Below are positions 5,208 through 63,658 of a stretch of 64,000 nucleotides of DNA, piece after piece (position 1 is the stretch's first letter; the number at the start of each line of letters is the position of its first letter). Under the pieces are notes generated by a model, which saw only the letters and a list, made by a program, of their open reading frames with translations, did not search any database and had not been told where the DNA came from. The stretch is taken from NCBI GenBank assembly GCA_963764275.1, contig CAVXRV010000002.1, forward strand, positions 158,799 to 222,798, in the 5' to 3' direction. The stretch comes from an uncultured Solirubrobacterales bacterium. GTDB taxonomy: Bacteria > Actinomycetota > Thermoleophilia > Solirubrobacterales > 70-9. The position numbers and the translations under genes are program-made.

Positions 5208-7046
5208 TCACCAGCGCGAGCCTATCCGTGCCCCTGGGCCGCCGCTCAGCCGCAGATCTTGTACCGGTGGTGGACGGTGCGGATGCGCCCGTCGATGAGC
5301 TCGCCGTCGGCCGCGACCTCGACCCGCTGGCCCGCCGCGCAGCAGCCGCGGGCGCAGCCTGAGCTTGAACGGCGCCCGATCGTCGACGCCGGCCTCGCGT
5401 CCGTCGACCCTGAAGGTCGCCTGCGTCATCTCCGTCTGCCGCTTGCCGCGCGGGATTCGGGCCACGAAGCGGTGCGCCTGCAGGCAGTTGTGGGCGTCGC
5501 CTCCGCGTCGCTTGGCCTTGACGTCGAGCCGCATCGCGGGCAGGCGCCGACACCCGGAGCCGGCGCAGTCGCCGAGATGGGTGAGCTGTCTGTGCAGCGC
5601 CCGGACGACGTCGGCGAACTTTTCCTTGGCGACGCGGTTCTTGAGCTCGTAGGGGTCCGTCCGGAGGTCGTAGAGCTCCTTCTCCCCGGTCGCGTTCTCG
5701 ACGTACTTGTAGCGCTGGGTGCGCACCGCCTTGTAGACCCCCGTGTCGGGCTCGCCCGCCTCCCCGAGGCCCGAATACTGCTCGAGCAGGATCTCGCGGC
5801 CCCGGTAGCGGTCGGCGTGAGCGGCGAGCGGCATCAGCGAGCGCCCGTCGACCTTGACGAGCGGCTCGGCCCCGGTGACGTCCGCGATCGTCGGCGCCAG
5901 GTCGATGTTGGCGGCCATCGACTTGACGTCCACTCCGCGTGGGATGCCCGGTCCGCGCATCAGCAGCGGCACCCGAACCGCCTCCTCGTAGACGCGGTTC
6001 TTGCCGGCGACGATCCGGTGCTCGCCGTGGAAGAAGCCGTTGTCGGAGGTGAAGATCACGATCGTGTTGTCGAGCTCGCCGGTGTCGCGGAGGGCGTTGA
6101 TGATGTGCTTGACGCCGCGGTCGAGGTCGAACAGGGCGCCGGCTCGACAGCGGTAGTTGCGGGTGGCCCGCGCGATCGCCTTCGTTCCCATCCGCGGCAG
6201 ATCCTGGATCTCCTGGGGCTTGTCGCTGACGTTCTTCTCGTTGTAGCTCGGGGGCTCGTAGGGCGGGAGCGCGACCGCGTCCAGCAGATCGCGGCGCGCC
6301 GGCTTGGCGGAGCTCACGCAGGGACCGGGCACGCTGTTCGGACCGCCCCCGTGCGGCGCCAGATAGCCGACCGACAGGAAGAACGGCTGGTCGGAGGGCG
6401 CCCGCTGGTCGATGATCCTGATCGCCTTGTCGGTGTAGACGTCGGTCGAGTAGCTCGACGGATCAGCCGGCGCGTTCGGGTTCTCCTGCTTGTCGCCGTA
6501 CTGGACCCATTGGCCGTCCTCGAGCAGCTCGTAGCCGTAGTAGCGGTAGGTGTCCTTGGAGCCGTGCCACTCCGACCAGCCCGGCGGCACCCCGATCGGG
6601 CTCTCCTCGTAGCCGTTCAGGAACTTGCCGATATGGGCTGTGTAGTAGCCGGCGTTCGAGAGCCACACGGGCAGGGCGGTCTCGTTGTGGAAGCGCGGGA
6701 AGCCTCCGTAGGGCGCGCCCTTGTTGCCGAGGACGCCATGGTTATGCGGGTACTGGCCCGTGAACAGGGTTGCGCGCGAGGGGCAGCACAGCGGCCAGAC
6801 CGCGAGGTTGAGCCCGAAGGTGGCGCCGCGATCACCGATCAAGTGCGCGGTCTTGGGCAGGAAGCGCATCTCCTCCTGCGTCTGGTCGTCGCTCTCGATC
6901 AGGACCACGTTCGGGCTCTCCTGGACCGCGGCGGCGGCGGGCGACGGGCCGGCCCCCGCAAGCGTTGCCGCCAGCGCGGCGGTGATCGTCACGAGGGCGA
7001 TCGAGGCCGCTACCGCGGCCCGCCGTCCCGCTGTGGCAGATCCCAT
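5208..7046 (-). CDS. secreted sulfatase (arylsulfatase / N-acetylglucosamine-6-sulfatase-like) with basic Cys-containing C-terminal extension
   Basis: ATG 7046 with GAGGAGGAAGGG upstream, and a signal peptide (AVAASIALVTITAALAATLAGA). The formylglycine motif CCPSRATLFTG and the DNGF.GEH region are present. Around 5325-5340 a more protein-like continuation (AGQRVEVAADGELIDGRIRTVHHRYKICG, stop 5246-5248) sits in another frame, so the 3' end probably carries an indel. Confidence 0.85.
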   Translation of the reverse strand: MGSATAGRRAAVAASIALVTITAALAATLAGAGPSPAAAAVQESPNVVLIESDDQTQEEMRFLPKTAHLIGDRGATFGLNLAVWPLCCPSRATLFTGQYPHNHGVLGNKGAPYGGFPRFHNETALPVWLSNAGYYTAHIGKFLNGYEESPIGVPPGWSEWHGSKDTYRYYGYELLEDGQWVQYGDKQENPNAPADPSSYSTDVYTDKAIRIIDQRAPSDQPFFLSVGYLAPHGGGPNSVPGPCVSSAKPARRDLLDAVALPPYEPPSYNEKNVSDKPQEIQDLPRMGTKAIARATRNYRCRAGALFDLDRGVKHIINALRDTGELDNTIVIFTSDNGFFHGEHRIVAGKNRVYEEAVRVPLLMRGPGIPRGVDVKSMAANIDLAPTIADVTGAEPLVKVDGRSLMPLAAHADRYRGREILLEQYSGLGEAGEPDTGVYKAVRTQRYKYVENATGEKELYDLRTDPYELKNRVAKEKFADVVRALHRQLTHLGDCAGSGCRRLPAMRLDVKAKRRGGDAHNCLQAHRFVARIPRGKRQTEMTQATFRVDGREAGVDDRAPFKLRLRPRLLRGGPAGRGRGRRRAHRRAHPHRPPPVQDLRLSGGPGARIGSRW

Positions 7047-9804: not shown

Positions 9805-10775
9805 GGCGGCCCGGACTGCCCCGCTGGCTCGCCCCCGTCGGGGAGTCGCGCGGCGTCTCCCGCTGGCTCTTTTGGACCGGCGTGGGGATCGTCGCGTTCT
9901 TCGTCGTGCTCGCGATCTTCGCGCCGCTGATCGCGCCGTTCGGCTTCGACCAGGTCAGCGACGCGGCGGGCCGGTTCCCGAAGCAGGCCCATCCCGACTC
10001 CACGCACCCGTTCGGGACCACGGTCGGGAGCTACGACGTGCTGTCGCGGGTGATCTGGGGATCCCGCACGGCGATCGAGGTCGTCGTCCTCGCCGTCGTC
10101 TTCTCGCTCGTGATCGGCGTCCCGCTCGGGCTCATCTCGGGCTACATCGGCGGCCGGCTGGACCGCTTCCTCGTCCTCGTCATGGACGCGATGTTCGCCT
10201 TCCCCTACATCCTGCTGGCGATCGTCATCGCCTTCCTGCTCTCGGACACGTTCGGCCAGGGGGTCTTCACGGCGGCCGTCGCGATCACTGCCGTCTACGT
10301 CCCACAGTACTTCCGCGTGGTCAGAAATCACGTGATCAGCGTCCGCGAGGAGTCCTACGTGGAGGCAGCGCGGGCGCTGGGCGCGCCGCGGCGGACGATC
10401 ATCACGCGCTACATCCTCCAGAACGTCGTCCAGAACGTGCCGCCGCTGGCGACGCTGAACGCCGCGGACGCGATCCTGACGCTGGCAGCCCTCGGCTTCC
10501 TCGGCTACGGCATCCAGCCGACCGATGCCGCGGAGTGGGGCTACGACCTGCAGCGCGCGATCGACGACGCCGGGGCCGGGATCTGGTGGACGGGCCTGTG
10601 GCCGGGGCTGGCAATCGTCCTGCTCGTCACCGGCTTCACCCTGCTGGGCGAAGGCCTCAACGACGTCATCAACCCGCTGATCCGCACCCGGCGGACGACG
10701 GTGCCGGACATCCCGAGCCGCGACGAGGGTCCCGCCGGCCCCGGTCTTGCCGGGGAGGAGGGTGAGCAGCTGTGA
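9801..10775 (+). CDS. ABC transporter permease (DppC/OppC-like)
   Basis: ATG 9801 lies within track ORF 9180..10775. Motifs [30 protein letters not shown] and [24 protein letters not shown] are characteristic of OppC-type permeases. Confidence 0.9.
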
Positions 10776-11813
10776 GCGCCGCGCCGGGCGAACGAGCCGA
10801 TCCTGACCGTCGAAGATCTGCGCGTCTGGTACGGCACGGGCGATCGCCCCGTGCGCGCGGTGGACGGCGTCTCGTTCCAGATCGGAGCGGGGGAGACGCT
10901 CGGCCTCGTCGGCGAGTCGGGCTGCGGCAAGTCGACGCTCGGCCGCGGCGTCCTCGGCCTGCTGCCCGCCATGGCCGCGGTCCGCGGCTCGGTCCACTAC
11001 GGCGGCAACGAGCTCGTCGGCCGCAGCCAGGCGGAGATGCGCGACATGCGCGGGCCGGAGCTGGGCCTGATCTTCCAGGAGCCGATGACGCGACTCGACC
11101 CGCTGCAGACGATCGAGTCGCACTTCCGCGAGGCGCTGCGCACGCACGCGCCGGAGATGGACAAGGACGAGGTCCGCCGGCGCTCGCTCGAAGCGCTGGC
11201 CGGCATGGGCATCCCCCGGACCCGCTTCACGCAGTACCCGCACGAGTTCAGCGGCGGCATGCGGCAGCGGATCATGATCGCGCTGGCGCTCGTGCTCGAG
11301 CCCAAGGTCCTGATCGCCGACGAGCCGACGACCGCCCTCGACGTGATCGTCGAGGCGCAGATCCTCGGCATCCTCGCCGACCTGCGGCGCAATTTCGACA
11401 CGGCGGTGCTGCTGATCACGCACAACCTGGGGATCGTCGCCGAGGCCTGCGACCGCGTCGCGGTCATGTACGCGGGGCGGATCGTCGAGGAGGGCGACGC
11501 GCGCCAGGTCTTCTCCGAGCCCGCGCATCCGTACACGCGCGAGCTCCTGCGCGCGACGATCTCGCTCGAGACGACCGGCCTCAACTACATCCCCGGCGCC
11601 CCGCCGAGCCTCAAGGACCCGCCGGCGGGCTGCCGCTTCCACCCCCGCTGCCCGGACGCGATGCAGGTTTGCGCCGAGCGCTTCCCGATCGAGGTCCGCG
11701 CGGCCGGTGGCCAGCGGACGGAGTGCTGGCTGCATGGGCCCGATGCCGAGCTCGGGGAGGCCGACCGCAAGCCGCTCGAGCGCGGCGAGATCCTCGAGGC
11801 GGAGGAAGCGTGA
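10772..11813 (+). CDS. ABC transporter ATP-binding protein (DppD/OppD-like), probable indel just after the start
   Basis: Walker [10 protein letters not shown], signature FSGGMRQR, Walker [12 protein letters not shown] and the oligopeptide C-terminal CRFHPRCP motif are all present. The conserved N-terminus [13 protein letters not shown] has no in-frame start. GTG 10772 (GTGA overlap with the permease stop) is one frame off, implying an indel near 10790-10800. Confidence 0.85.
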
Positions 11814-26545: not shown

Positions 26546-26595
26546 GTCGTCCTCCGGTGCGGCCCGCGGCGGCCGCGATCTGAACTAGACTGGCC

Positions 26596-26780
26596 GCGTC
26601 CATAACGGTCGGTGTTCAGGGAAGTCCGGTGTGAAGCCGGCGCGGTCCCGCCACTGTGACCGGGTGAGTTCGCTGCACGCGTAGCCGCCTCCGCCGTGAG
26701 AGCGGCCGCAGCCACTGGGAGCCCGACGGGCCCCGGGAAGGCGCGGCGGAAATACCCGTAAGCCAGGAGACCCGGCGTCG
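26596..26780 (+). promoter_or_regulatory. cobalamin (B12) riboswitch
   Basis: The conserved core reads AGGGAAGTCCGGTGTGAAGCCGGCGCGGTCCCGCCACTGT (26618-26657). It is followed by GCCACTGGGAG...CCGGGAAGGC and the B12 box AGCCAGGAGACCCGGC (26761-26776). It ends about 35 nt before ATG 26815, whose GGAAAGGG Shine-Dalgarno follows. Confidence 0.85.
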
Positions 26781-26814
26781 GCCCAGCTGAAAACCCTCGA
26801 GGAAAGGGTGGCTC

Positions 26815-38025: not shown

Positions 38026-38262
38026 ATGTTCATCACCCGAAGCAAGCTCGCCGCCCTGGCGGCCGCCGGCACCCTCGCGCTCGGCGGCGCCGGCGCTACC
38101 GCCGCCATGGCTGCGCCGGCCAGTCAGGCCAGCAAGCAGGACCATCACGGCCAAAAGCACGACAGCAAGGGCCACAAGCACGACGGTAAGGGCAAGGGCC
38201 ACAAGCACGACGGCAAGGGCAAGGGCCACAAGCACGACGGCAAGGGCGGCAAGAAGCGCTAG
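38026..38262 (+). CDS. small secreted His/Lys/Gly-rich repeat protein
   Basis: ATG 38026 lies 7 nt after GGAAAGGAG. The signal peptide is LAALAAAGTLALGGAGATAAMA. The mature part is QDHHGQKHDSKGHKHDGKGKGHKHDGKGKGHKHDGKGGKKR. A hairpin terminator follows. Confidence 0.55.
   Translation: MFITRSKLAALAAAGTLALGGAGATAAMAAPASQASKQDHHGQKHDSKGHKHDGKGKGHKHDGKGKGHKHDGKGGKKR
38167..38247 (+). repeat. 27-bp tandem repeat x3 inside the His-rich ORF
   Basis: AAGGGCCACAAGCACGACGGYAAGGGC occurs at 38167, 38194 and 38221, with one T/C difference. It encodes KGHKHDGKG three times. Confidence 0.9.
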
Positions 38263-52859: not shown

Positions 52860-54530
52860 GTGAAGCTGATCGAGCGCAGGGTCGGCCTCCTCTTCGCGCT
52901 CTTTGCGCTGGCCTTCGTCGGCGTGCTCGGGCGCGCCGCGTGGCTGCAGACGGTCAAGGGCGGCCAGTACAGCGCCGACGCGCACTCGCAGCAGACGGCG
53001 ACGGTGACCGTGCCCGGGACGCGCGGCAGCATCCTCGACCGCAGGGGCGAGGGGCTCGCGGTCTCCGAGGACGCGGCGACGATCTTCGCCACGCCGTATC
53101 AGGTCAAGAATCCGCCGCGCACGGCGGCGAAGCTGGCGAAGCTCATCAAGGGCAGCAAGGAGACGGACATCCTCAAGGCGCTGACCGCCAACTCCGGCTT
53201 CGAGTACGTCGCTCGGCAGGTGCCGCTCTCGGAGGCGAACAAGGTGGAGAAGCTCGGCCTCGCCGGGATCGGGACCCTGCCCGACTCGCGCCGCGTCTAT
53301 CCGCAGGGCGACATCGGCGGCCGCCTGATCGGCGCCGTCGGCACCGACGGTCAGGGGCTGTTCGGGATCGAGGGCTCCGAGAACGGCGTCCTGCAGGGCA
53401 CCGACGGCCAGGTCGCGGTGACGCGCGACGCGCTCGGGGACGAGATCCGCCGCAACACGATCAGCAACGCGCAGACGGGCGGCAACGTCGAGCTCACGAT
53501 CGACGGCAAGATCCAGGCGGAGACCGAGAGCGTCCTGAACGAGGTCGGCAAGACCTACGACCCGAACGGGGCGACCGCGATCGTGATGAACCCGCAGTCG
53601 GGCGACATCCTCGCGATGGCGAGCTGGCCCCCGGTCGATCCCGACGAAGCTCGACGACGCGAAGCCGGACCTGCTCTCGAACATGGCGACCTCGTTCACC
53701 TACGAGCCCGGCTCGACCTTCAAGGCCTTCACCGTCGCCGGCGCCGAGCAGGACGGGCTCGTCAAGCCGACGACGACCTTCGACCTGCCGCCGACGCTGC
53801 AGGTCGCCGACCGGCAGATCAGCGATGCCGAGGCGCGCGGCCCGGAGACGATGAGCGTCGCCGAGATCCTCAAGGTCTCCTCGAACGTCGGCGCGGACAC
53901 GATCGGCCTCAAGCTCAACCACGGCCAGTTCGGCTCGCGCTTCGACCACTGGGTGCGGCGGTTCGGCTTCGGCAAGCCGACCGGCATCGACTACCCGGGC
54001 GAGGAGCAGGGGATCGTCCCGCGGCCCAAGGACTACTCGGGCTCGACGATGGGCAACCTGCCGATCGGCCAGGGCCTCGCGGTGACGCCGCTGCAGATGA
54101 TCACCGCGTACGCGGCGATCGCCAACGGCGGCGTGCTGCGGACGCCGCGCCTGATCGAGTCGATCGACGGCGAAGAAGCAGCCCCGAAACAAGGCGGCAC
54201 CGGGTGATCAGCCGCAAGACGGCCCGCGATCTGCGGACGATGCTCGAGGGCGTGGTCGAGCCAGGCGGCACCGCCTCGGTCGCGGTCCCCGGCTACGTGC
54301 TCGCCGGCAAGACCGGCACCGCCCAGAAGGTCATCAACGGCACCTACTCGGACACCCAGTACATCGCCTCTTTCATCGGCTTCGCGCCGGCCGATCATCC
54401 GGAGCTGCTCGCCGCGGTCGTCGTCGACGACCCGAAGGGCGGCAACTACTACGGCGGCACGGTCGCCGCGCCGGCCTTCGGCAAGATCGCGTCGTTCGCG
54501 CTGCCTTACCTCGGGATCCCGCCCAACTGA
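52860..54530 (+). pseudogene. ftsI: penicillin-binding protein 2 / FtsI-type transpeptidase, two compensating frame changes as written
   Basis: The N-terminal TM and dimerisation domain, and the C-terminus (KTGTAQK, YIASFIGFAP), are in the frame of GTG 52860. The segment carrying the active-site STFK and SSN motifs lies in ORF 53683..54207, one frame off. Confidence 0.85.
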
Positions 54531-54717
54531 GGGGTTGGTGGCGGGGAGCGGGCGCGGGCGCGGCTCCGGCGACAGCAGCACCTCCGCCGCGCCCGCTCCC
54601 GCTGTGACGTCGCTGGTTGGCCGGTTCGTGGCCGGCCCCGCTCCTGGTGCGCGGGCGAGGGGGGCCGGGCAGGGTCGTGGGCTCAGCCGCCCCCTCCGAC
54701 CCTAGAATCGCCTGCCG

Positions 54718-56229
54718 ATGAGGCTCGGCGCGCTCTGTGGCGACATCGGGAAGCTCTCCGCCGCCGCAGCGGATGACCCCGAGATCACCGATCTGGTCTT
54801 CGACAGCCGCAAGGCCTCGGCCCGGGTGCCTGTTCTTCTGCGTCGTCGGGATGAGCTCCGACGGGCACGAGTTCGCTCCGGCCGCGGTCGAGGCGGGGGC
54901 CGCGGCGCTGGTCGTCGAGCGGCCGCTCGGGCTCGGGGTGCCCGAGGTCCTGGTCGACGACGCCCGCGCGGCGATGGCGCCGCTCGCGCAGCGCTTCTTC
55001 GGCGATCCGACCGCGACGCTGGCGCTCGCGGCCGTGACCGGCACGAACGGCAAGACGACGACGGCGTTCCTGGTGCGCTCGATCCTCGAGGCGGCGGGCA
55101 TGCGCTGCGGGCTGCTCGGCACGATCCGCCAGATCGTCGGCGGCGAGACCGTCGAGGCGGTGCGCACGACGCCGGAGGCGATCGACCTGCAGCGCACCTT
55201 CGCGGCGATGCTGGCCGCGGGCGACCGCGCCGCTGCGATCGAGATCTCCTCGCACGCGCTCGTGCTCGGGCGGGCCGACTGCGTGCACGTCGCCGGCGGC
55301 GGCGTTCACGAACCTGACCCAGGACCACCTCGACTTCCACGCCGACATGGAGGACTACTTCGAGGCCAAGCGGCTGCTGTTCACCGGCGTGACGGGCCGC
55401 CGCGAGCCGCCGCGGGTCTCGGCGATCAACGTCGACGACGCGTACGGGCAGCGGCTGCTCGCGGCGACCTGCGCGCGGCGGGACGGCGACGGAGATCGTC
55501 ACCTTCTCGGCCGCCGGGCGCCGAGGCCGACTGCAGCGCCACCGAGCGTCGAGTTCGACGCCGCCGGCGCGACGCTTCACGCTGCGCGCGTCGCGGCGCG
55601 CGAGCATGGCGTCGCGCTGCCGCTGCCCGGTCGCTTCAACGTCGAGAACGCGCTCGCCGCGCTCGCCCTCGCCGGCGGCCTCGGCGTCGCCGCTCGCGGA
55701 CGCGGTCGCGGCGCTGCGCGAGGCCGAGCCCGTGCCGGGCCGGATGGAGCCGATCCGCGAGGGGCAGGAGTTCGCCGTGCTCGTCGACTACGCGCACACG
55801 CCCGACTCGCTCGTCAACGTGCTCGCGGCGGCGCGCGAGCTGACCGGCGGGCCGGCTGATCAGCGTCGTCGGCTGCGGCGGCGACCGCGACCGCGCGAAG
55901 CGGCCGCTGATGGGCGCCGCGGCCGCCGACGGCCTCCGACGTCTGCTTCGTCACCTCCGACAACCCGCGCTCCGAGGACCCGGACGCGATCATCGCCGAG
56001 ATCCTCGACCGGGATCGACGATCGCGCGCAACGTCGTCGTCGAGGTCGACCGGCGCAAGGCGATCGCGATGGCGCTCGGCGCAGGCCCGCGCCGGGGACC
56101 TCGTCGTGATCGCCGGCAAGGGGCACGAGCAGGGACAGGAGTTCGAGGGCGGCCGCAAGGAGCCCGTTCGACGACCGCGAGGTCGCCGCGGGAGCGAGCT
56201 GCGCGGCGCTGGGGGTCGGGGCGGCGTGA
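54718..56229 (+). pseudogene. murE: UDP-N-acetylmuramoyl-tripeptide synthetase MurE, multiple frame changes as written
   Basis: Pieces lie in ORFs 54718, 54737 ([17 protein letters not shown]), 55347 ([12 protein letters not shown]; [11 protein letters not shown]), 55606 ([12 protein letters not shown]) and 56106 (IAGKGHEQGQEF). The probable stop is TGA 56227-56229. Confidence 0.8.
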
Positions 56230-57656
56230 TCGACCTGCCCGGCCGAGCGGCTCGCCGCCGAGGGCGGCGCCGAGATCGCCGTGCGCGGCGAGCGGGCGAG
56301 TTCCCCGAGCGCGCCGTCGTCGACTCGCGCGAGGTCGGGCCCGGCGATCTGTTCTTCGGCATCGCGGGCGAGCAACGTGGACGGTGGCCGCTTCGCCGCC
56401 GACGCGATCGCGGCCGGAGCCTGGGGCGTGGTCGTCGATCCCCGCCACGCCGCCGACCTGGAGCCCGATGGCGGCGACCGCGGTCGCGTCGGCGAGGGCC
56501 GTGCCTGGGTCCTCTCGACACCGGACCCGGAGCGCTGCCTGCAGGCGCATGGCGCGGCGGCTGGCGGCGCACGATCGGCTGCCCGCTGGTCGGGATCACC
56601 GGCTCGACCGGCAAGACCTCGGTCAAGGACATCACCCGGGCGCTGCTGCCCGGCGCGGTCGCACGCCAGCCCGGAGAACTTCAACACCGAGATCGGCATG
56701 CCGCTGGCGCTGCTCGTCGGCGCCGCGCGAGACCGAGATCCTCGTCATGGAGATGGCGATGCGCGGGCACGGGCCAGATCCGCCAGCTCTGCGAGATCGC
56801 CGAGCCGGACGTCGCCGCGATCACCAACGTCGGGCCCGGTCCACCTCGAGCTGCTCGGCACGCTCGAGGCGATCGCCGAGGCGAAGGCGGAGATCCTCGC
56901 CGGGCTCGAGCTCCGCGGCGACGAGGGCCGGGCCGTCGTGCCGGCGGACGCGGAGGCGCTCGAGCCGCACCTGCACGACGAGCTCATCGACCTTCACCTT
57001 CGGCCCCGGCGGCGACGTCTTCGCGCTCAGCGGCGACGCGCGCGGGCACCTCGATGCGGGCGCGGATCGGCACCCCGCACGGCGAGGCCGACTTCGAGTT
57101 CGGCTTCACCGAGGACGCACAACCTGCGCAACGCGCTCTGCGCGGTCGCGATCGGCGTCGCGCTCGACCTCGACCCGGCGGCGATGGCGCGCGAACGCGT
57201 CGCGGATACAGTTCTCGCGCCTTCGCGGCGAGCGGATCGCGCTGCGCGGGGGAATCCTGCTGCTCAACGACTGCTACAACGCCAACCCGATCTCGATGCG
57301 CGCCGCGCTCGAGCACCTCGCCTCCGAGCCGACGCCCGGAGGCGGCCGCCACGTGGCGGTCCTCGGCGGCATGGCCGAGCTCGGGCGCGACGGGCCCCGA
57401 GTATCCACGAGCGAGATCGCCGAGCTCGCCCGCGGGCTCGGGGTCGAGCCCGCTGATCGGCGTCGGCGACCTCGCCCGCGACTACGCGCCGGACGAGTGG
57501 GTCGCGACGCCGGCCGAGGCGGCGACGCTCGCCGCCGAGCACGCTCGGCGAGGGCGACGTCGCGCTGATCAAGGGTCGCGCTCGGTCGGCCTCGAGCTGG
57601 TCGCCGACACGCTCATGCGCCGAGCTCGGCGCAGGAGACGGAGGCGGAGCGAGTGA
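56226..57656 (+). pseudogene. murF: UDP-N-acetylmuramoyl-tripeptide--D-alanyl-D-alanine ligase MurF, multiple frame changes as written
   Basis: GTG 56226 forms a GTGA junction with murE. Fragments include VVDSREVGPGDLFFGIAGE, GITGSTGKTSVKD, NFNTEIGMPLALL, NVGPVHLE, LLNDCYNANP and ALIKGSRSVGLE, distributed over ORFs 56106..57656, 56281..57456 and 55910..57568. Confidence 0.8.
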
Positions 57657-57700
57657 CGCCGCATCGCTAGCGTCGCTCGGCGGCGACGTCGGCCTCGACG

Positions 57701-58680
57701 GTGATCGACCGCGGTCGAGATCCTGATCGGCGGCATGGCGGCGATGCTGATCACGATCTTCCTCGGGCCGAAGTTCATCGAGATCCTTCGCAACCGCGAG
57801 TTCGGCCAGCAGATCCGCGAGGAGGGCCCGCAGGGCCACCACGAGAAGGCCGGGACGCCGACGATGGGCGGGCTGATCATCTTCGCCGCGATCTCGATCC
57901 CCTACCTGGTGCTCAGCGACCGCGACACCGAGAGCCTCGCCGTCTTCCTCGTCGCGCTCGGCAGCGCCGGGCTCGGCTTCGCCGACGACTGGATCAAGAT
58001 CGTCAAGCGACGCTCGCTCGGCCTCTCGGCGCGCGTGGAAGCTGCTCGGCCAGATCGCGCTCGACGATGCTCCTCTGGTGGTTCGCCTTCCAGTCGGTCG
58101 GCCTCGACCCGAGGCTGCAGCTCCGCGTCTGGGATGTCGCACCTGTACCTCGGGCCGGCGGTCTACGTGATCCTCACCTTCTTCGTCCTCGCCGGCGCCA
58201 GCAACGGCGTCAACCTCACCGACGGCCTCGACGGGCTCGCGGCGGGATCGCTGCGCGATCGTCTTCCTCGCCTACATGGCGATCACGATGACCACCGGCC
58301 AGCAGGGCCTCGCGCTGCTCTCGGCCTGCCTGGTCGGCGCCTGCGTCGGCTTCCTGTGGTTCAACGCCCACCCGGCGACGATCTTCATGGGCGACACGGG
58401 CTCGCTCGGCCTCGGCGGCGCGATCGGCGCCCTGGCGATCATGACCCAGACCGAGGTCCTGCTGATCATCCTCGGCGGCATCTTCGTCATGGAGGCGCTC
58501 TCGGTCGCGATCCAGGTGTTCGCGTTCAAGACCTTCCGCCGCCGCGTCTTCCTGATGGCCCCGATCCACCACCACTTCGAGATGATGGCCTGGTCGGAGA
58601 CGAAGATCATGCTCCGCTTCTGGATCATCGCCGCCGTCTGCGCCGGCATCGGCTACACCCTCTTCCAGAACTCGATTTGA
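57701..58680 (+). pseudogene. mraY: phospho-N-acetylmuramoyl-pentapeptide transferase MraY, frame changes as written
   Basis: GPKFIEILRNREFGQQIREEGPQGHHEKAGTPTMGG and DDWIKI are in ORF 57735..58847. NGVNLTDGLDGLA lies in a shifted stretch. MGDTGSLGLGG and APIHHHFE are in ORF 58276..58680. The start is tentatively GTG 57701, with an early indel. Confidence 0.8.
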
Positions 58681-58690
58681 CGGCGGGCTG

Positions 58691-58788
58691 GAGCCCGCTG
58701 CTCGGCGTCCCGCTTCGCTCACGTGCGGAGAGGTCGGCGGCGGGCCGGGAGCCCGATGCTCGGCGTCCCGCTTCGCTCACGTGCGGAG
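58691..58788. repeat. 58-bp-period direct repeat x2 immediately after mraY
   Basis: The 40-nt core GAGCCCG(C/A)TGCTCGGCGTCCCGCTTCGCTCACGTGCGGAG occurs at 58691-58730 and 58749-58788, with one mismatch. Confidence 0.85.
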
Positions 58789-59060
58789 CACGCTCGCTCA
58801 GCGCTACCTTGACCCTCGACGCTCCCGGCCTCGCCGTGAGGGGTTGACGCCCGGCGGCGGCGAGCCGCGGTGTTGACGCCCGGGCGGGTCTCGGGCTTGG
58901 TCTCGGCCGGGTCCGGTCCCCTGGGGGAAAGAAGGTGGCGCCCGACGCCGGCGGGGGACGTCCGCTACGGCGTTGGCTTCTCTCCGGCTGAGGTTGACCG
59001 CCTTTTGGGCACCGAGGGAGGGAGGTGGAAGGGGAGGGGAGGGCCGTGTGCGCGGATGGA

Positions 59061-59750
59061 ACGCAAAAACGTCGGGGACGTCCGCTTGGGCCGTGAGGTC
59101 ACCAACGTTTATGCGTCCAGGCGGTAGAAACGTCGGAGACGTCGGCCGGGAGTAGACGTCCCCGACGTTCTTCGCCCACATCTGGTGTCCCGGGCCCCGT
59201 CAGGGGCCGGGGATCCCCCACCTGCCCACCTCCCTCACTGCCCTCGCACCGCCACGTCCACTCGCCGGCGGCGCGGCGGGCGCGGCGTCAACGCAAAAAC
59301 GTCGGGGACGTCCGCTTGGGTGGGGAGGTGTCCGACGTTTATGCGTCCAGGCGGTAGAAACGTCGGAGACGTCGGCCGGCCGTAGACGTCCCCGACGTTC
59401 TTCGCCCACATCTGGTGTCCCGGGCCCCGTCAGGGGCCGGGGATCCCCCACCTGCCCACCTCCCTCACTGCCCTCGCACCGCCACGCCCACTCGCCGGCG
59501 GCGCGGCGGGCGCGGCGTCAACGCAAAAACGTCGGGGACGTCCGCTTGGGTGGGGAGGTGTCCGACGTTTATGCGTCCAGGCGGTAGAAACGTCGGGAAC
59601 GTCGGCCGGCCGTAGACGTCCTCGACGTTCTTCGCCCACATCTGGTGTCTCGGGCCCCGTCAGGGGCCGGGGACTCCCACCTGCCCACCTCCCTCACTGC
59701 CCTCGCACTGCCACGGCCTTCGCCGGCGGCGCCGGCGGCGCGGCGGAGAC
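59061..59750. repeat. tandem array of three 230-bp units with nested palindromes, non-coding, between mraY and murD
   Basis: Units start at 59061, 59291 and 59521 (ACGCAAAAACGTCGGGGACGTCCGC...). I counted about nine differences by eye between units 1 and 2. Unit 3 decays after about 59700. Each unit holds the 15-nt inverted pair AACGTCGGGGACGTC / GACGTCCCCGACGTT, an inner pair, a GGCCCCgtcaGGGGCC hairpin and a C-rich tract. Confidence 0.9.
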
Positions 59751-59842
59751 CCCCGCCGGCGGGGCGGCGCGGCCCGTGGGGCCGCCGGGGCCGCACCGGA
59801 GCCGCCGCAGGGGCCCGCGCGCTGTTGGCGAACATCCGGGTT

Positions 59843-61209
59843 ATGGAAACCAGGCCTGCCGATTCCGCGCGGGGCCCTACCTGATCGTCGGCATGGCCCG
59901 CTCGGGCCAGGCGGCGGCGCGGCTGCTCGCGGAGGCGGGGGCGCGGGTCGTCGCCGTCGATTCGGGATCTCCTTCCGTGGATGCAGGATTGCGGGAGGCG
60001 GGCGTCGAAATTCACCTGGATGACGACGGCACGCAGCACCTCGGACGGGATCGGTCTCGTGATCAAGAGCCCGGGGGTGCCGCAGACGGCGCCGGTGATC
60101 GAGGTCGCGCGCGAGCGCGGCGTGCCGGTGATCGGCGAGCTCGAGCTCGCCTGGCGCTCGCTCCCGAACCCGTTCGTCGCCGTGACGGGCACGAACGGCA
60201 AGACGACCGTCGTCGAGTGGCTCGGCCACGTCTGGCGCGAGGCCGGGCATGCCGGTCGTCGTCGCCGGCAACGTCGGCCGCCCGCTCTCGGCGCTACCGG
60301 CGCGAGATCGACGAGTACGCGACGGTCGTCTGCGAGTGCTCCTCCTTCCAGCTCGAGGACAGCGCCGCCTTCGCCCCCGAGGTCGCGGTGCTGCTCAACG
60401 TCACGCCCGACCACCTCGACCGTCATGGCAGCTTCGAGGCCTACCGCGACGCGAAGCTGCGGATCTTCGCCGGCCAGGCGCAGACCGACTTCGCGATCTT
60501 CGACGCCGACCTCGTCCCGTTCGCCGCCTCCGAGCGGCCCGGGCCACGGCGCGACGATCGCCTACGGCGTCTCCGCCTGCGCCGAGGGCGGCTGCCTGGT
60601 GCGGCTGCGCGGCGAGCGCGATCGAGGTCGACGGCGCGGCGCTCATCCCGGTCGACGAGCTGGCCCTCGCCGGCGAGCACAACGTCCGCAACGCGATGGC
60701 GGTCGCGGCGGCGGCGCTCTGCGGCGGCGTTCCGCGCGAGGCGATCGGCGCGCGGGCTGCGCAGCTTCGCCGGCGTCCCGCACCGGCTCGAGCGGGTCGC
60801 CGAGATCGACGGCGTGCTCTTCGTCAACGACTCGAAGGCGACCAACGTCGCCGCGGCGCGAGGCGGCGCTGCGCTCCTTCGGCGAGCGGCCCGTCCACGC
60901 GATTCTCGGCGGCAGCCTCAAGGGCGGCGGCTTCGACGGGCTGCGCGCCCGCGGTCGCCGCGCGCTGCGCGGCCGTCTATCTGATCGGCGAGGCCGCGCG
61001 CCGCGCTCGAGGAGACGCTGGCGCCTGCCGGCGGTGCCGATGCGCGCGCTCGGGCACGCTCGAGGTCGGCCGTCGCCGAGGCGGCCGCGGCAGCCGAGCC
61101 CGGCGAGCGTCGTCCTGCTCGCGCCCGGCCTGCGCCAGCTTCGACGCCTTCCGCGACTACGAGGAGCGCGGCGAGCGCTTCCGCGAGCTCGTCCGGGAGC
61201 GCGCGGTGA
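59843..61209 (+). pseudogene. murD: UDP-N-acetylmuramoylalanine--D-glutamate ligase MurD, frame changes as written
   Basis: ATG 59843 is one frame off from the Rossmann start YLIVGMARSGQAAARLL. Fragments include [63 protein letters not shown] and FDAFRDYEERGERF. The likely stop is TGA 61207-61209. Confidence 0.8.
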
Positions 61210-62568
61210 GCGCGGCGATCGCGGCGCTGCGCAGCGGCTTCGGCTCGCGCCGCAAGGGCGGCGTCGAAGGCGAAGCGCACGGCAGCTCGCAGCCGATCGA
61301 GTACCAGCTCGTGATCACGGCGACGATGTGCCTGGTCGCCTTCGGCGCCGTCATGGTCTTCAGCGCGAGCTCGACCTCCTCGCTGCTCGGCTCCAACGGC
61401 GACGGCGCCTACTACCTGAAGCGCACGCTGATGTTCGGCGCCTTCGGCCTGCTCGCCCTGCACGTGCTCGCCCGCGTGCGCCTGCGACGATCCGCAGCCT
61501 GACGCCGATGCTGCTCGCCGGTCTGCTTCGGGCTGCTCGATCGTCGTGCTCGGGATCGGCACGATCGGTCAACGGCGCCAAGAGCTGGATCGTCTTCGGA
61601 CCGCTCCAGGTCCAGCCCTCGGAGATCATGAAGGTGGCGCTGCTGCTCTACGGCGCTCACCTGATCGCCGCCCGCCCGCAGATGACCGACGACCTGCGCT
61701 CGATGCGCCCCTACCTGGTCGTCGTCGCGCGGCGCCTTCGCGCTGATCCTGCTGCAGCCGGACTTCGGCACGACGATGGTCACCGCGCTCGGCGATCGGC
61801 GCCCTGCTGATCGCCGGCGGCGCCCGCATCCGCCATCTGGCGATGATCGCCGGCGGTGATCGGCTTCGTCGCGCTGGTCGCGGTGCTGATCGAGCCCTAC
61901 CGGATGGCGCGCCTGACGACCTTCCTGCACCCGGGCTCCGACCCCTCCGGCGCCGGCTTTCAGACGCGGCCAGGCGTCGATCGCGATGGGCTCGGGCGGC
62001 ATCTTCGGCGTCGGGCTCGGGCAGAGCGTCGCAGAAGGCCTTCTACCTGCCCGAGGCGCACACCGACATGATCTCCGCCGTGATCGGCGAGGAGATCGGC
62101 TTCGCCGGGATCACCGTCCTCGTCGGCCTCTACATGCTGTTCGGCTACGGCGGCTTCCGCACCGCGCAGCGCGCCAAGGACCGATACGGCAGGCTGCTCG
62201 CCGCCGCGCTGACCGCGATGATCCTGATCCAGGCGACCATCAACCTCTACGCAGCGATGGGGATGGCGCCGCTGACCGGGGTGACCCTGCCATTCGTCTC
62301 CTACGGAAACAGCAGCCTGATCGTGACCCTCGCCGCCGTCGGCCTGCTCCTCAACGTGGCCAACGGCGGCACCGCGGCGATGCGCCCGGGACGGCCGCGG
62401 CACGCGCGCGCGCCCGGCGCTCGGCGGCCTGTGGGTAATCGACGGCGAGCGCTCGCGGCCGAAGCCGAGCGCGGCGAGCGGCGACGCGCGACGCCGGCGC
62501 GCGCAGCTCCGGCGACGAAGCGGCGGCAGCGCCCGAGCCGCGTCGCACGACCAGCAGCGGAGGAACCC
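61206..62568 (+). pseudogene. ftsW: peptidoglycan polymerase / lipid II flippase FtsW (SEDS family), frame changes as written; 3' end undefined
   Basis: GTG 61206 (GTGA junction). Motifs: VITATMCLVAFGAVMVFSASS, GAKSWIVFGPLQVQPSEIMKV, LPEAHTDMISAVIGEEIGF, LTGVTLPFVSYGNSS. The Arg-rich tail runs into murG without an in-frame stop. Confidence 0.75.
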
Positions 62569-63658
62569 GTGCCGCACGTGGTGATCGCGGCCGGCGGGAC
62601 AGCCGGTCACGTGGTACCGGCGCTGGCCGTCGCCGACGCGCTCGCTGAGCGCGGCGCCACGCGTCAGCTTCATCGGCACGCGCGAGCGGGCCGAGGCCGA
62701 GCTGGTCCCGGCGGCCGGCTACGAGATCGACTTCCTCGCCGTCCGCGGGCTCGACCGCCGCAACCCGATCAAGGCGCGCCGCCGCGGCCGGGCCGGGCGG
62801 GGATCGCCGTCCGCGCGGCGCGCCGGCTGCTGCGCGAGCGCGGCGCCGACGCGGTCATGGGCGGCGGCGGCTACGTCGCCGGGCCGGCGGGGCTGGCCGC
62901 CGCCGGCGCTGCGGCCTGCCGCTGGTCCTGACCGAGGCCGACAGCCACCTCGGGATCACCAACCGGATGCTGGCCCGGCGCGCGCGGCGCGTCTGCCTCG
63001 CCTTCGAGATCCCCGGCCGCGAGGGCCCGCTGTACCTGCACACGGGCCGGCCCGTGCCGCGGGCGATCCTCGAGCGCGGACCGCGACGGCCGCTCGGCAG
63101 CGGTTCGGGATCGAGCCCGAGATCCCCTGCCTGCTGATCTTCGGCGGCAGCCTCGGCGCGCGGACGATCAACCAGGCGGCCGCCGACGGCCTTCGCCGGC
63201 GCCGGACGCCGGCGAGCGCGCCTTCCACGTCCTGCACGTCACCGGCACCCGCGACTACGAGCGAGATCCGGGCGCGAGTCGGCGACGCGCCCCGCTACAC
63301 GTTGCTCGAGTACCTGCCCGACCTCGGCGACGCGCTCGCGGCCTGCGATCTCGCCCTGGCCCGCTCCGGCGGCTCGGTCTTCGAGCTCACCGCCGCCGGC
63401 CGGCGGCGCGGTGCTGGTGCCCTACCCGTACGCGACCGGCAGCCCACCAGCACACGAACGCGAGCTGGATGGCGGACGCCGGCGCCGCGCATCGTCATCG
63501 AGGATGCCGAGCTGACCGCCGAGCTGCTGCGCGAGCGCGTCGCGCCGATGCTCGGCCGAGCCGCGAGCGGCTGGCGGCGATGGGCGAGGCCGCGCGCGGC
63601 GATCGCCAAGCCCGACGCCGCGGAGCGGATCGCGGCTGAGATCCTCAGCTTCGTATGA
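62569..63658 (+). pseudogene. murG: undecaprenyldiphospho-muramoylpentapeptide beta-N-acetylglucosaminyltransferase MurG, frame changes as written
   Basis: GTG 62569 lies 4 nt after GGAGGAA. Motifs: VVIAAGGTAGHVVPALAVADAL, GGGGYVAGPAGLAA, LLEYLPDLGDALAACDLALARSGGSVFELTAAG and the C-terminal AAERIAAEILSF. The stop is 63656-63658. Confidence 0.8.

Follow-up and report, generated by a model that had tools for sequence, protein, structure and literature searches.

A triplicated 230-bp array between mraY and murD as a probable amplified copy of a MITE-type intergenic repeat in soil Solirubrobacterales

In a 64,000-nt stretch of an uncultured Solirubrobacterales bacterium (assembly GCA_963764275.1, contig CAVXRV010000002.1, positions 158,799 to 222,798 of the forward strand; hereafter the window), the division and cell-wall (dcw) gene cluster is interrupted between mraY and murD by 1163 nt of non-coding DNA containing three head-to-tail copies of a palindrome-rich unit of about 230 bp. 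Such an arrangement raises the question of whether the array is a structured RNA within the dcw mRNA, a set of protein-binding sites, a mobile repeat or an error of assembly. The original prediction, which had described the array and the size of the gap correctly, saw a weak hint of RNA structure and named a repeat resembling MITEs (miniature inverted-repeat transposable elements) or repetitive extragenic palindromic (REP) sequences among the alternatives. The analysis reported here indicates that the array is probably a tandemly amplified copy of a MITE-type, modular intergenic repeat of soil Solirubrobacterales. The repeat is scattered over unrelated loci, carries terminal inverted repeats at its ends, varies between orthologous sites and lies mostly at gene 3' ends, and selection on base pairing of its modules is not detectable.

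The array was delimited by Tandem Repeats Finder at 59060-59745 (period 230, 3.0 copies, 95% matches, score 1223), where it forms the strongest repeat of the window by a wide margin. Independent repeat finding returned the same three copies, spaced 230 and 230, and also recovered the inverted pairs, a GCCCCGTCAGGGGCC hairpin and a C-rich tract that is found in all units. Within the interval 59061-59745 the units start at 59061, 59291 and 59521; the exact 230-bp period proposed earlier holds for these starts and is lost inside unit 3, which contains single-base insertions or deletions (indels). Between the first and second units 9 positions differ, and between the second and third ~16, mostly through clustered substitutions. 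With up to two mismatches allowed, the array contains nine instances of AACGTCGGGGACGTC and the rest of the 64 kb contains one; shuffled sequences average 0.32 and reach 2 at most. As had been predicted, every unit carries four copies of the AACGTCGG-type motif in both orientations; they follow the order + - + -, with their cores spaced 34/27/33 bp apart. The arms of the predicted outer 15-nt pair occupy 59068-82 and 59155-69, 72 nt apart, and in unit 2 the arms of the inner pair, which enclose a 17-nt loop, occupy 59327-39 and 59357-69.

Relatives of the array were sought in metagenomes with a pattern of three cores at loose spacing (AACGTCGG N20-40 CGACGTT N10-30 AACGTCGG), which matched at least 120 loci. 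Among the matches listed, 31 elements on 29 loci carry four cores in the order + - + - with a spacing of 33/27/33 (+/-1), a geometry that the search pattern did not impose. The family consensus begins with a first module, GCGTC-AACGTCGGA(A/C)G, ~19 variable nt and C(G/T)TCCGACGTT-GAC, and continues through a 13-nt linker (often CATAGATGCCG) into GTC-AACGTCGGA ... TCCGACGTT-GACGC. Modules span ~60 bp, and each comprises two inverted half-sites, (GTC)AACGTCGGA ... TCCGACGTT(GAC), at 33-bp spacing around a variable centre of fixed length. Regarded as short extragenic imperfect palindromes, the modules measure 41-45 nt, have inverted arms of 9-12 nt and occur 2-5 to a cluster. A profile constructed from 19 metagenome elements, with the window sequence excluded, was then applied with nhmmer and matched 59297-59399 (E 3.4e-10), 59527-59629 (E 2.5e-9) and 59068-59169 (E 1.5e-7), covering the window units over their full length on both strands and nothing else in the window. 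Judged by sequence comparison, the window units are homologous to this dispersed family.

The clusters are also bounded in a characteristic manner. In about 40 of the matches listed, the modules are bracketed at a distance of ~15-45 nt by a G-rich left-hand box and a right-hand box that is its reverse complement, in the variants GGCATTGAGGGAGG / CCTCCCTCAATGCC and GGCTGGGTAGGGAGG / CCTCCCTACCCAGCC. The two ends of one element show inverted similarity over ~26-33 nt, finishing near GCCGCCGTTGACGT(T), so that the boxes belong to left and right terminal inverted repeats (TIR-L and TIR-R). Complete two-module elements measure 167-190 bp and reach up to ~350 bp with extra modules; they fall outside open reading frames (ORFs) with high third-position GC and are accordingly intergenic and non-coding.

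The same architecture can be followed through the window. TIR-L (GGCACCGAGGGAGG, 59008-59021, plus strand) is present as a single copy upstream of unit 1, inside a G-rich tract at 59007-59045; it differs from the family consensus GGCATTGAGGGAGG at two positions, aligns with the TIR-L of complete elements and agrees with the reverse complement of the window TIR-R at 12 of 14 positions. Each unit then runs in the order module A, linker, module B, box, hairpin insert, TIR-R and a ~45-nt GC-rich tail. Module A1 (AACGTCGG, 26 nt, CCAACGTT) occupies 59068-59109, identified by a regular-expression match with one mismatch in the right arm, and the inner left arm of this unit is degenerate (CCAACGTT). 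Module B1 (AACGTCGG, 25 nt, CCGACGTT) lies at 59129-59169 and is supported by both motif match and family profile. The post-module box TGTCCCGGGCC (59186-59196, plus strand) corresponds to the consensus G.G.TCCGGGCC when complete elements of nine further loci are aligned with it; it is seen again at +230 and, altered by one substitution, at +460. The predicted hairpin was found as GGCCCCGTCAGGGGCC at 59193-59208, 59423-59438 and 59653-59668 by repeat finding; this GGCCCCGTCAGGGGCC/GGCCCC region forms a ~31-nt insert peculiar to the window, opposite a gap in the other aligned family members. TIR-R1 (CCTCCCTCACTGCC, 59229-59242, plus strand) has two mismatches to the consensus CCTCCCTCAATGCC and shares CCCTCACTGCC with the TIR-R of metagenome locus L132. 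Unit 2 repeats this series with module A2 at 59298-59339 and module B2 at 59359-59399 (both from motif geometry and family profile) and with TIR-R2 at 59459-59472 (plus strand, terminal-box match). Unit 3 has module A3 at 59528-59569 (motif match and family profile), module B3 at 59589-59629 with the arm variants GGGAAC and CCTCGACGTT, and TIR-R3 at 59688-59701 (plus strand, terminal-box match), the right end of the amplified element. In an alignment with nine complete or nearly complete elements, the window TIR-L, modules A and B, the TCCGGGCC box and TIR-R all fall in register, and the window is therefore best described as one complete element, from TIR-L to TIR-R1, followed by two extra copies of its right-hand 230 bp.

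The family behaves as an interspersed repeat. Neighbouring ORFs are unrelated across the element loci, except in two locus pairs that represent the same site sampled twice, and at least 25 unrelated genomic contexts were recorded. Given these unrelated neighbours, the family is not the leader or operator of one gene family, and a census of genes beside the element loci found no recurrent gene such as a transposase. Two contigs carry more than one element. L091 contains two, and L054 contains a three-module element together with a second one 9 kb away (10700-10905), which has the same terminal repeats and a module-free interior of ~130 nt. Because these two L054 elements share their ends and differ inside, the terminal repeats can carry different cargo. 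Arrays of 3-5 modules with a ~61-bp period and terminal repeats at both ends were found in L005, L022, L023 and L025, and tandem modules occur in L026 too; considering that module number varies among arrays, modular expansion and local tandem duplication are habits of the family, in keeping with the array of the window.

Differences between orthologous sites provide further evidence. The spacer downstream of moeA measures 98 bp and has no element in L131. In L132 and L134 it holds one element and measures ~245 bp, and it extends to ~520 bp in L026, where five modules and an extra internal TIR-L amount to ~2.5 elements. The MoeA protein (product of moeA/glp) encoded beside the L026 element is 80% identical to a protein from a Solirubrobacteraceae metagenome-assembled genome, and on this protein match at least one element-bearing metagenome contig is assigned to Solirubrobacterales, the order of the window itself. 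The mraY-murD gap offers a second polymorphic site, with the element in the window and in none of six relatives. With respect to gene context, eight of the nine loci with genes called on both sides lie between convergent genes, and 30 of 34 flanking genes present their 3' end to the element; the co-directional exceptions are the window (mraY then murD) and L026. The same bias toward convergent-gene intervals has been described for known MITE-like repeats (PMC3049150). Searches of a plasmid collection returned no match to the window unit or a family element, and viral contigs gave two unrelated matches only. GTDB species representatives, searched with the hairpin pattern specific to the window, not with that of the wider family, yielded two chance matches in coding sequence, where GACGTCGGCGACGTC encodes DVGDV.

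The host site was examined in six relatives collected through MraY homologues with 87-92% identity over a C-terminal fragment; the relatives of the window MraY carry Solirubrobacterales labels. Their mraY-murD gaps measure ~230, 261, 483, 524, 708 and 2198 nt, and the expectation that the two genes are normally adjacent thus fails in this clade. Searches of these gaps with the motif and the family profile detected neither the 230-bp unit nor its motif in any of the six relatives, and a blastn comparison of the window gap with the rest of the window and with the relatives returned GC-rich low-complexity matches only. Other sequences have settled there. The gap of L004 contains an SRPBCC/polyketide-cyclase-like remnant on the opposite strand (6600-7017, minus strand; PF03364, E 1e-5), and that of L128 contains a GNAT acetyltransferase remnant (6321-6551, plus strand; PF13302, E 4e-14). 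The mraY-murD gap is a site tolerant of insertions in this clade.

In the window, the left edge of the gap is the mraY stop codon (58678-58680, plus strand), which closes an ORF at 58276-58680 identified as mraY by 100% identity to P0001 and a match to Pfam PF00953 and ending ...HHHFEMMAWSETKIMLRFW...FQNSI*. On the right, MurD homology begins at 59872, and the probable murD start is an ATG at 59844-59846 (plus strand), placed by alignment of seven genomes with some uncertainty as to the exact codon owing to frameshifts. Within about 10-40 nt upstream of the murD start, a motif CGCAGGG ... GCGAA..T.TA.G is conserved in seven of seven genomes (the window, L003, L004 and L127-L130); its region in the window is 59810-59846, and it is kept whatever occupies the gap further upstream. 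This motif is a possible candidate for a murD promoter, perhaps producing a leaderless transcript. Because it is conserved in all seven genomes, murD would have its own promoter and the dcw cluster would be split here throughout the clade.

Further repeats occupy the part of the window gap nearest mraY. Directly after the mraY stop lie two copies of a 46-nt direct repeat (58685-58730 and 58743-58788, 93% identical), each opening with a GCGGGCT..AGCCCGC hairpin and unrelated to the 230-bp unit; they could be terminators or the remains of another repeat. Two copies of GG(G/T)GTTGACGCCCGG follow at 58840 and 58869. At 58947-58969, upstream of TIR-L and out of register with it, GCCGGCGGGGGACGTCCGCTACG resembles the start of module A and is identical over 13 nt to GGGGACGTCCGCT; it may be what is left of an earlier copy of the element.

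Whether the modules are conserved as stems or as half-sites was assessed by folding and by comparison with shuffled alignments. A single unit is predicted to fold strongly, with -128.8 kcal/mol on the plus strand (z -4.6 versus shuffles) and -133.9 kcal/mol on the minus strand (z -4.9). Among 62 distinct hairpin modules, 68.5% of cells are paired, compared with 69.8% in column-preserving shuffles, and 472 of 500 shuffles reach the observed fraction; the covariation score is 0.110 versus 0.121 in shuffles. At the first variable stem position, one arm has A or C and the other G or T without correlation, and one subfamily retains the non-complementary arms AACGTCGGG and CACGACGTT. With the linker used to orient the elements, mismatches of the G-T and A-C types are equally frequent (15 each). 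Since covariation is lacking and the arms vary independently, the symmetry is a property of the consensus and resembles two independently conserved half-sites at fixed phasing rather than selected pairs. A central GATC is present in 16 of the 62 modules, compared with 3.1 in shuffles, and the outer part of the terminal repeats (GAACGGCGGCA) is also half-site-like, which brings the number of half-site-like motifs to six per element when the terminal repeats are counted. The half-sites, which reappear within the terminal repeats in degenerate form, would be bound by a sequence-specific protein, most economically a transposase that may have been domesticated.

Among the rival explanations, a structured cis-acting RNA specific to the mraY-murD junction, serving in processing, stability or attenuation of the dcw mRNA, would be consistent with the strong predicted folding and with one substitution in unit 3 that yields a G-U pair on the plus strand in a nested pairing model. 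Both of the unit-3 substitutions noted earlier are indeed present, yet the wobble argument built on them rests on error-filled sequence, and pairing into adjacent hairpins merely shifts the mismatch. The minus strand folds equally well or better, neither covariation nor a bias of G-U over A-C was found, and the element occurs at unrelated loci, chiefly between convergent genes, while it is missing from the same junction in the six relatives. At the Rfam gathering threshold the whole window gave no match in the array, its sole match being a cobalamin riboswitch, and a permissive Rfam search (E up to 10) of the gap and 15 family loci returned nothing meaningful. A dcw-specific RNA is consequently very improbable, and the earlier hint of RNA structure finds no support. 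The assembler might also have expanded one unit to three. The sequence is certainly rich in indel errors: MurD homology switches reading frame at least six times, every gene of the dcw cluster at 52860-63000 (ftsI, murE, murF, mraY, murD, ftsW, murG) has several frameshifts, and genes on related ENA contigs are broken in like manner. This pattern points to an indel-rich long-read assembly rather than to pseudogenes, and the window is inferred to be a long-read metagenome assembly; because it is error-prone, single-base arguments in the array are weak. The differences between units, though, consist of clustered substitutions (9 and ~16) beyond homopolymer indels, a 690-bp array is small relative to long reads, and independent short-read metagenome contigs of the same family show tandem duplications of modules and terminal repeats. 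An artefactual array is thus the least probable of the explanations considered.

Two further proposals share more ground with the preferred one. REP-like hairpins of the kind found in bacterial interspersed mosaic elements (BIMEs) could have been spread by a single-copy REP-associated tyrosine transposase (RAYT) and kept as bidirectional terminators or 3'-end stabilisers, with the triple array attenuating read-through from mraY to murD. The clustered extragenic imperfect palindromes with conserved linkers, the strong preference for gene 3' ends and convergent pairs, and the folding of units far beyond shuffles on either strand would all agree with this, as would the known attenuation by intra-operon BIMEs (PMC3049150) and the existence of REPIN (paired REP) doublets (PMC3116915). 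It is nevertheless unlikely: the element is bounded by separate terminal inverted repeats that can enclose unrelated cargo, which is not a trait of REP or REPIN sequences; successive modules are direct copies (~61-bp period where the inner segments are alike) and do not alternate; the stems lack covariation; and a terminator scan found no GC-rich hairpin followed by a T run in the array, its only match in 58400-60100 being a chance-level one on the minus strand at 58949-58937. Alternatively, the array could be operator-like, binding a host nucleoid, insulator or regulatory protein and amplified to regulate or insulate murD and the division genes downstream. Conserved half-sites with fixed 33/27-bp phasing and independently varying arms, the enrichment of central GATC and the six half-site-like motifs per element are compatible with such a role. 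The binding protein is only hypothetical, no neighbouring gene family recurs, and a placement mainly downstream of genes, away from promoters, is unlike that of classical operators; moreover, the proposal is compatible with, and hard to separate from, binding by a transposase. It is accordingly quite unlikely. A broader version is doubtful as well, namely an order-wide Solirubrobacterales system in which a protein, perhaps a domesticated transposase, recognises phased GTCAACGTCGGA half-sites, the elements have been co-opted as bidirectional barriers or terminators at gene ends, and the mraY-murD array is a functional insulator keeping the dcw cluster divided into two transcription units.

The preferred explanation remains an amplified MITE-type repeat. 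A two-module element (59008-59242) would have inserted into the already long, insertion-tolerant mraY-murD gap of a split dcw cluster, after which its right-hand 230 bp, comprising both modules, TIR-R and the GC-rich tail, would have undergone two tandem duplications, for which slippage or unequal recombination is the likeliest mechanism. At this site the element would be a tolerated passenger, or at most a strongly folding block or a terminator placed between two transcription units that had been separate beforehand; a host role of the array, either as such a barrier or as a protein-binding array, is possible. Several points weigh against this explanation. The search pattern demanded three exact cores, so part of the 8-mer conservation stems from the way the loci were selected. 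The terminal boxes of the window agree with the consensus at only 12 of 14 positions, and the outer parts of its terminal repeats are degenerate. Profile and blastn searches of the 64-kb window and of ~50 kb from dcw loci of the relatives found no second copy, so that several copies within this particular genome are only presumed. Outside the terminal repeats no target-site duplication was consistent, the TA beside the ends of the L132 element falling within the inverted similarity, and the metagenome loci examined contained no autonomous element or transposase with matching ends and no TIR pair enclosing a gene. The family is GC-rich, whereas classical MITEs have been described as AT-rich (PMC3049150). 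Finally, the inner segments with their 25-nt centre are mildly more self-complementary than shuffles (mean z -0.87), which leaves some room for a hairpin role of the modules. Taken as a whole, the original interpretation is partly supported: a MITE- or REP-like origin, one of its alternatives, is borne out by a dispersed intergenic family with terminal inverted repeats, and dispersal free of conserved structure is essentially what was observed, with the reservation that the family does prefer gene 3' ends.

Three other classes of sequence were considered and rejected. A CRISPR array is at odds with variable segments that are only ~19-25 nt long, enriched in GATC and repeated between the window units, and with arrays bounded by terminal inverted repeats. 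A coding repeat, suggested by spacings of 33/27/33 that are multiples of 3, was discarded in view of the location outside ORFs with high third-position GC and of a 230-bp period that is not a multiple of 3. A canonical intrinsic terminator was dismissed on the terminator scan of the array.

Several other repeats and features were recorded. Two loci, L020 (18-4830) and L093 (54-4180), are very long satellite arrays in which a ~69-nt unit, bearing one AACGTCGG/CCGACGTT core, is present in more than 60 copies per array; they have the 8-mer in common with the family but represent another kind of repeat. Other tandem hairpin families with a AACGTCGG...CCGACGTT stem base occur in L042, L060, L009, L056, L072, L075, L103, L116 and L124. 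Spacings among such AACGTCGG-based families include 41/31/41 on low-GC contigs and 34/37/34 with well-paired inner stems; these families may share an origin with the present one or may resemble it by convergence. Elsewhere in the window, the cobalamin riboswitch aptamer (RF00174, 62.2 bits, E 5.5e-13) lies at 26577-26793 on the plus strand, and Tandem Repeats Finder reported a 27-nt tandem repeat of ~3-4 copies at 38149-38247 (unit GCAAGGGCCACAAGCACGACGGCAAGG, up to 98% matches), which may be coding, as its period is a multiple of 3.

Solirubrobacterales are an abundant and poorly studied soil order. With the conspicuous array accounted for by amplification of an interspersed repeat, an attractive but false lead, that of a dcw-specific structured RNA, is set aside. 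The description of the family, including its terminal repeats, module consensus and phasing, can serve genome annotation, the flagging of assembly-prone regions and strain typing, and offers a starting point for identifying which enzyme or host factor binds the half-sites. In addition, the regular interruption at mraY-murD in this clade of a dcw cluster that is otherwise tightly packed bears on the transcription of division and cell-wall genes.

Compared with known systems, the family shows several hallmarks of MITEs, namely terminal repeats, small non-coding size, dispersal, polymorphism and a bias toward convergent genes (PMC3049150). Like the Correia elements of Neisseria and the cyanobacterial Nezha elements, it has terminal inverted repeats of ~26 bp, measures 100-250 bp without an ORF, and occurs in many dispersed intergenic copies that are present or absent between related genomes. 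It departs from them in base composition, in the target-site duplication and parent insertion sequence for which the metagenome loci gave no consistent sign, and in internal half-sites that resemble its terminal repeats. With the REP and BIME sequences of E. coli and the REPINs of Pseudomonas it shares clustered extragenic palindromes with conserved linkers and a location at gene 3' ends or in operons, where BIMEs can attenuate transcription or stabilise mRNA (PMC3049150; PMC3116915). However, REP and REPIN sequences lack separate terminal inverted repeats, and REP units alternate in orientation (PMC3116915); they further depend on RAYT, and their 5' GTAG hallmark is not evident in the family. 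The Rfam mraW motif and other dcw RNA motifs are likewise non-coding sequences of the actinobacterial dcw cluster, whereas the family matches no Rfam entry and its element is not tied to dcw genes.

By analogy, the modular layout is closest to that of the BOX elements of pneumococci and streptococci, which consist of boxA, a variable number of boxB and boxC and measure 67-637 bp (PMC3049150). Both are modular interspersed repeats in which two partly complementary terminal modules enclose variable tandem internal modules, and both are non-coding, fold strongly, are over-represented between convergent genes and have an uncertain mobilising enzyme (PMC3049150). On the other hand, the two belong to different phyla and have no sequence similarity, and the family is GC-rich while BOX is AT-neutral. 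The internal modules of the family are inverted-repeat pairs with fixed 33-bp arm spacing and a variable centre, and the block amplified in the window takes in the right terminal repeat rather than internal modules alone. Literature searches returned no description of the motif or of REP or MITE repeats in Solirubrobacterales, and for that reason the family appears to be new; it seems to be an undescribed family of an already known kind.

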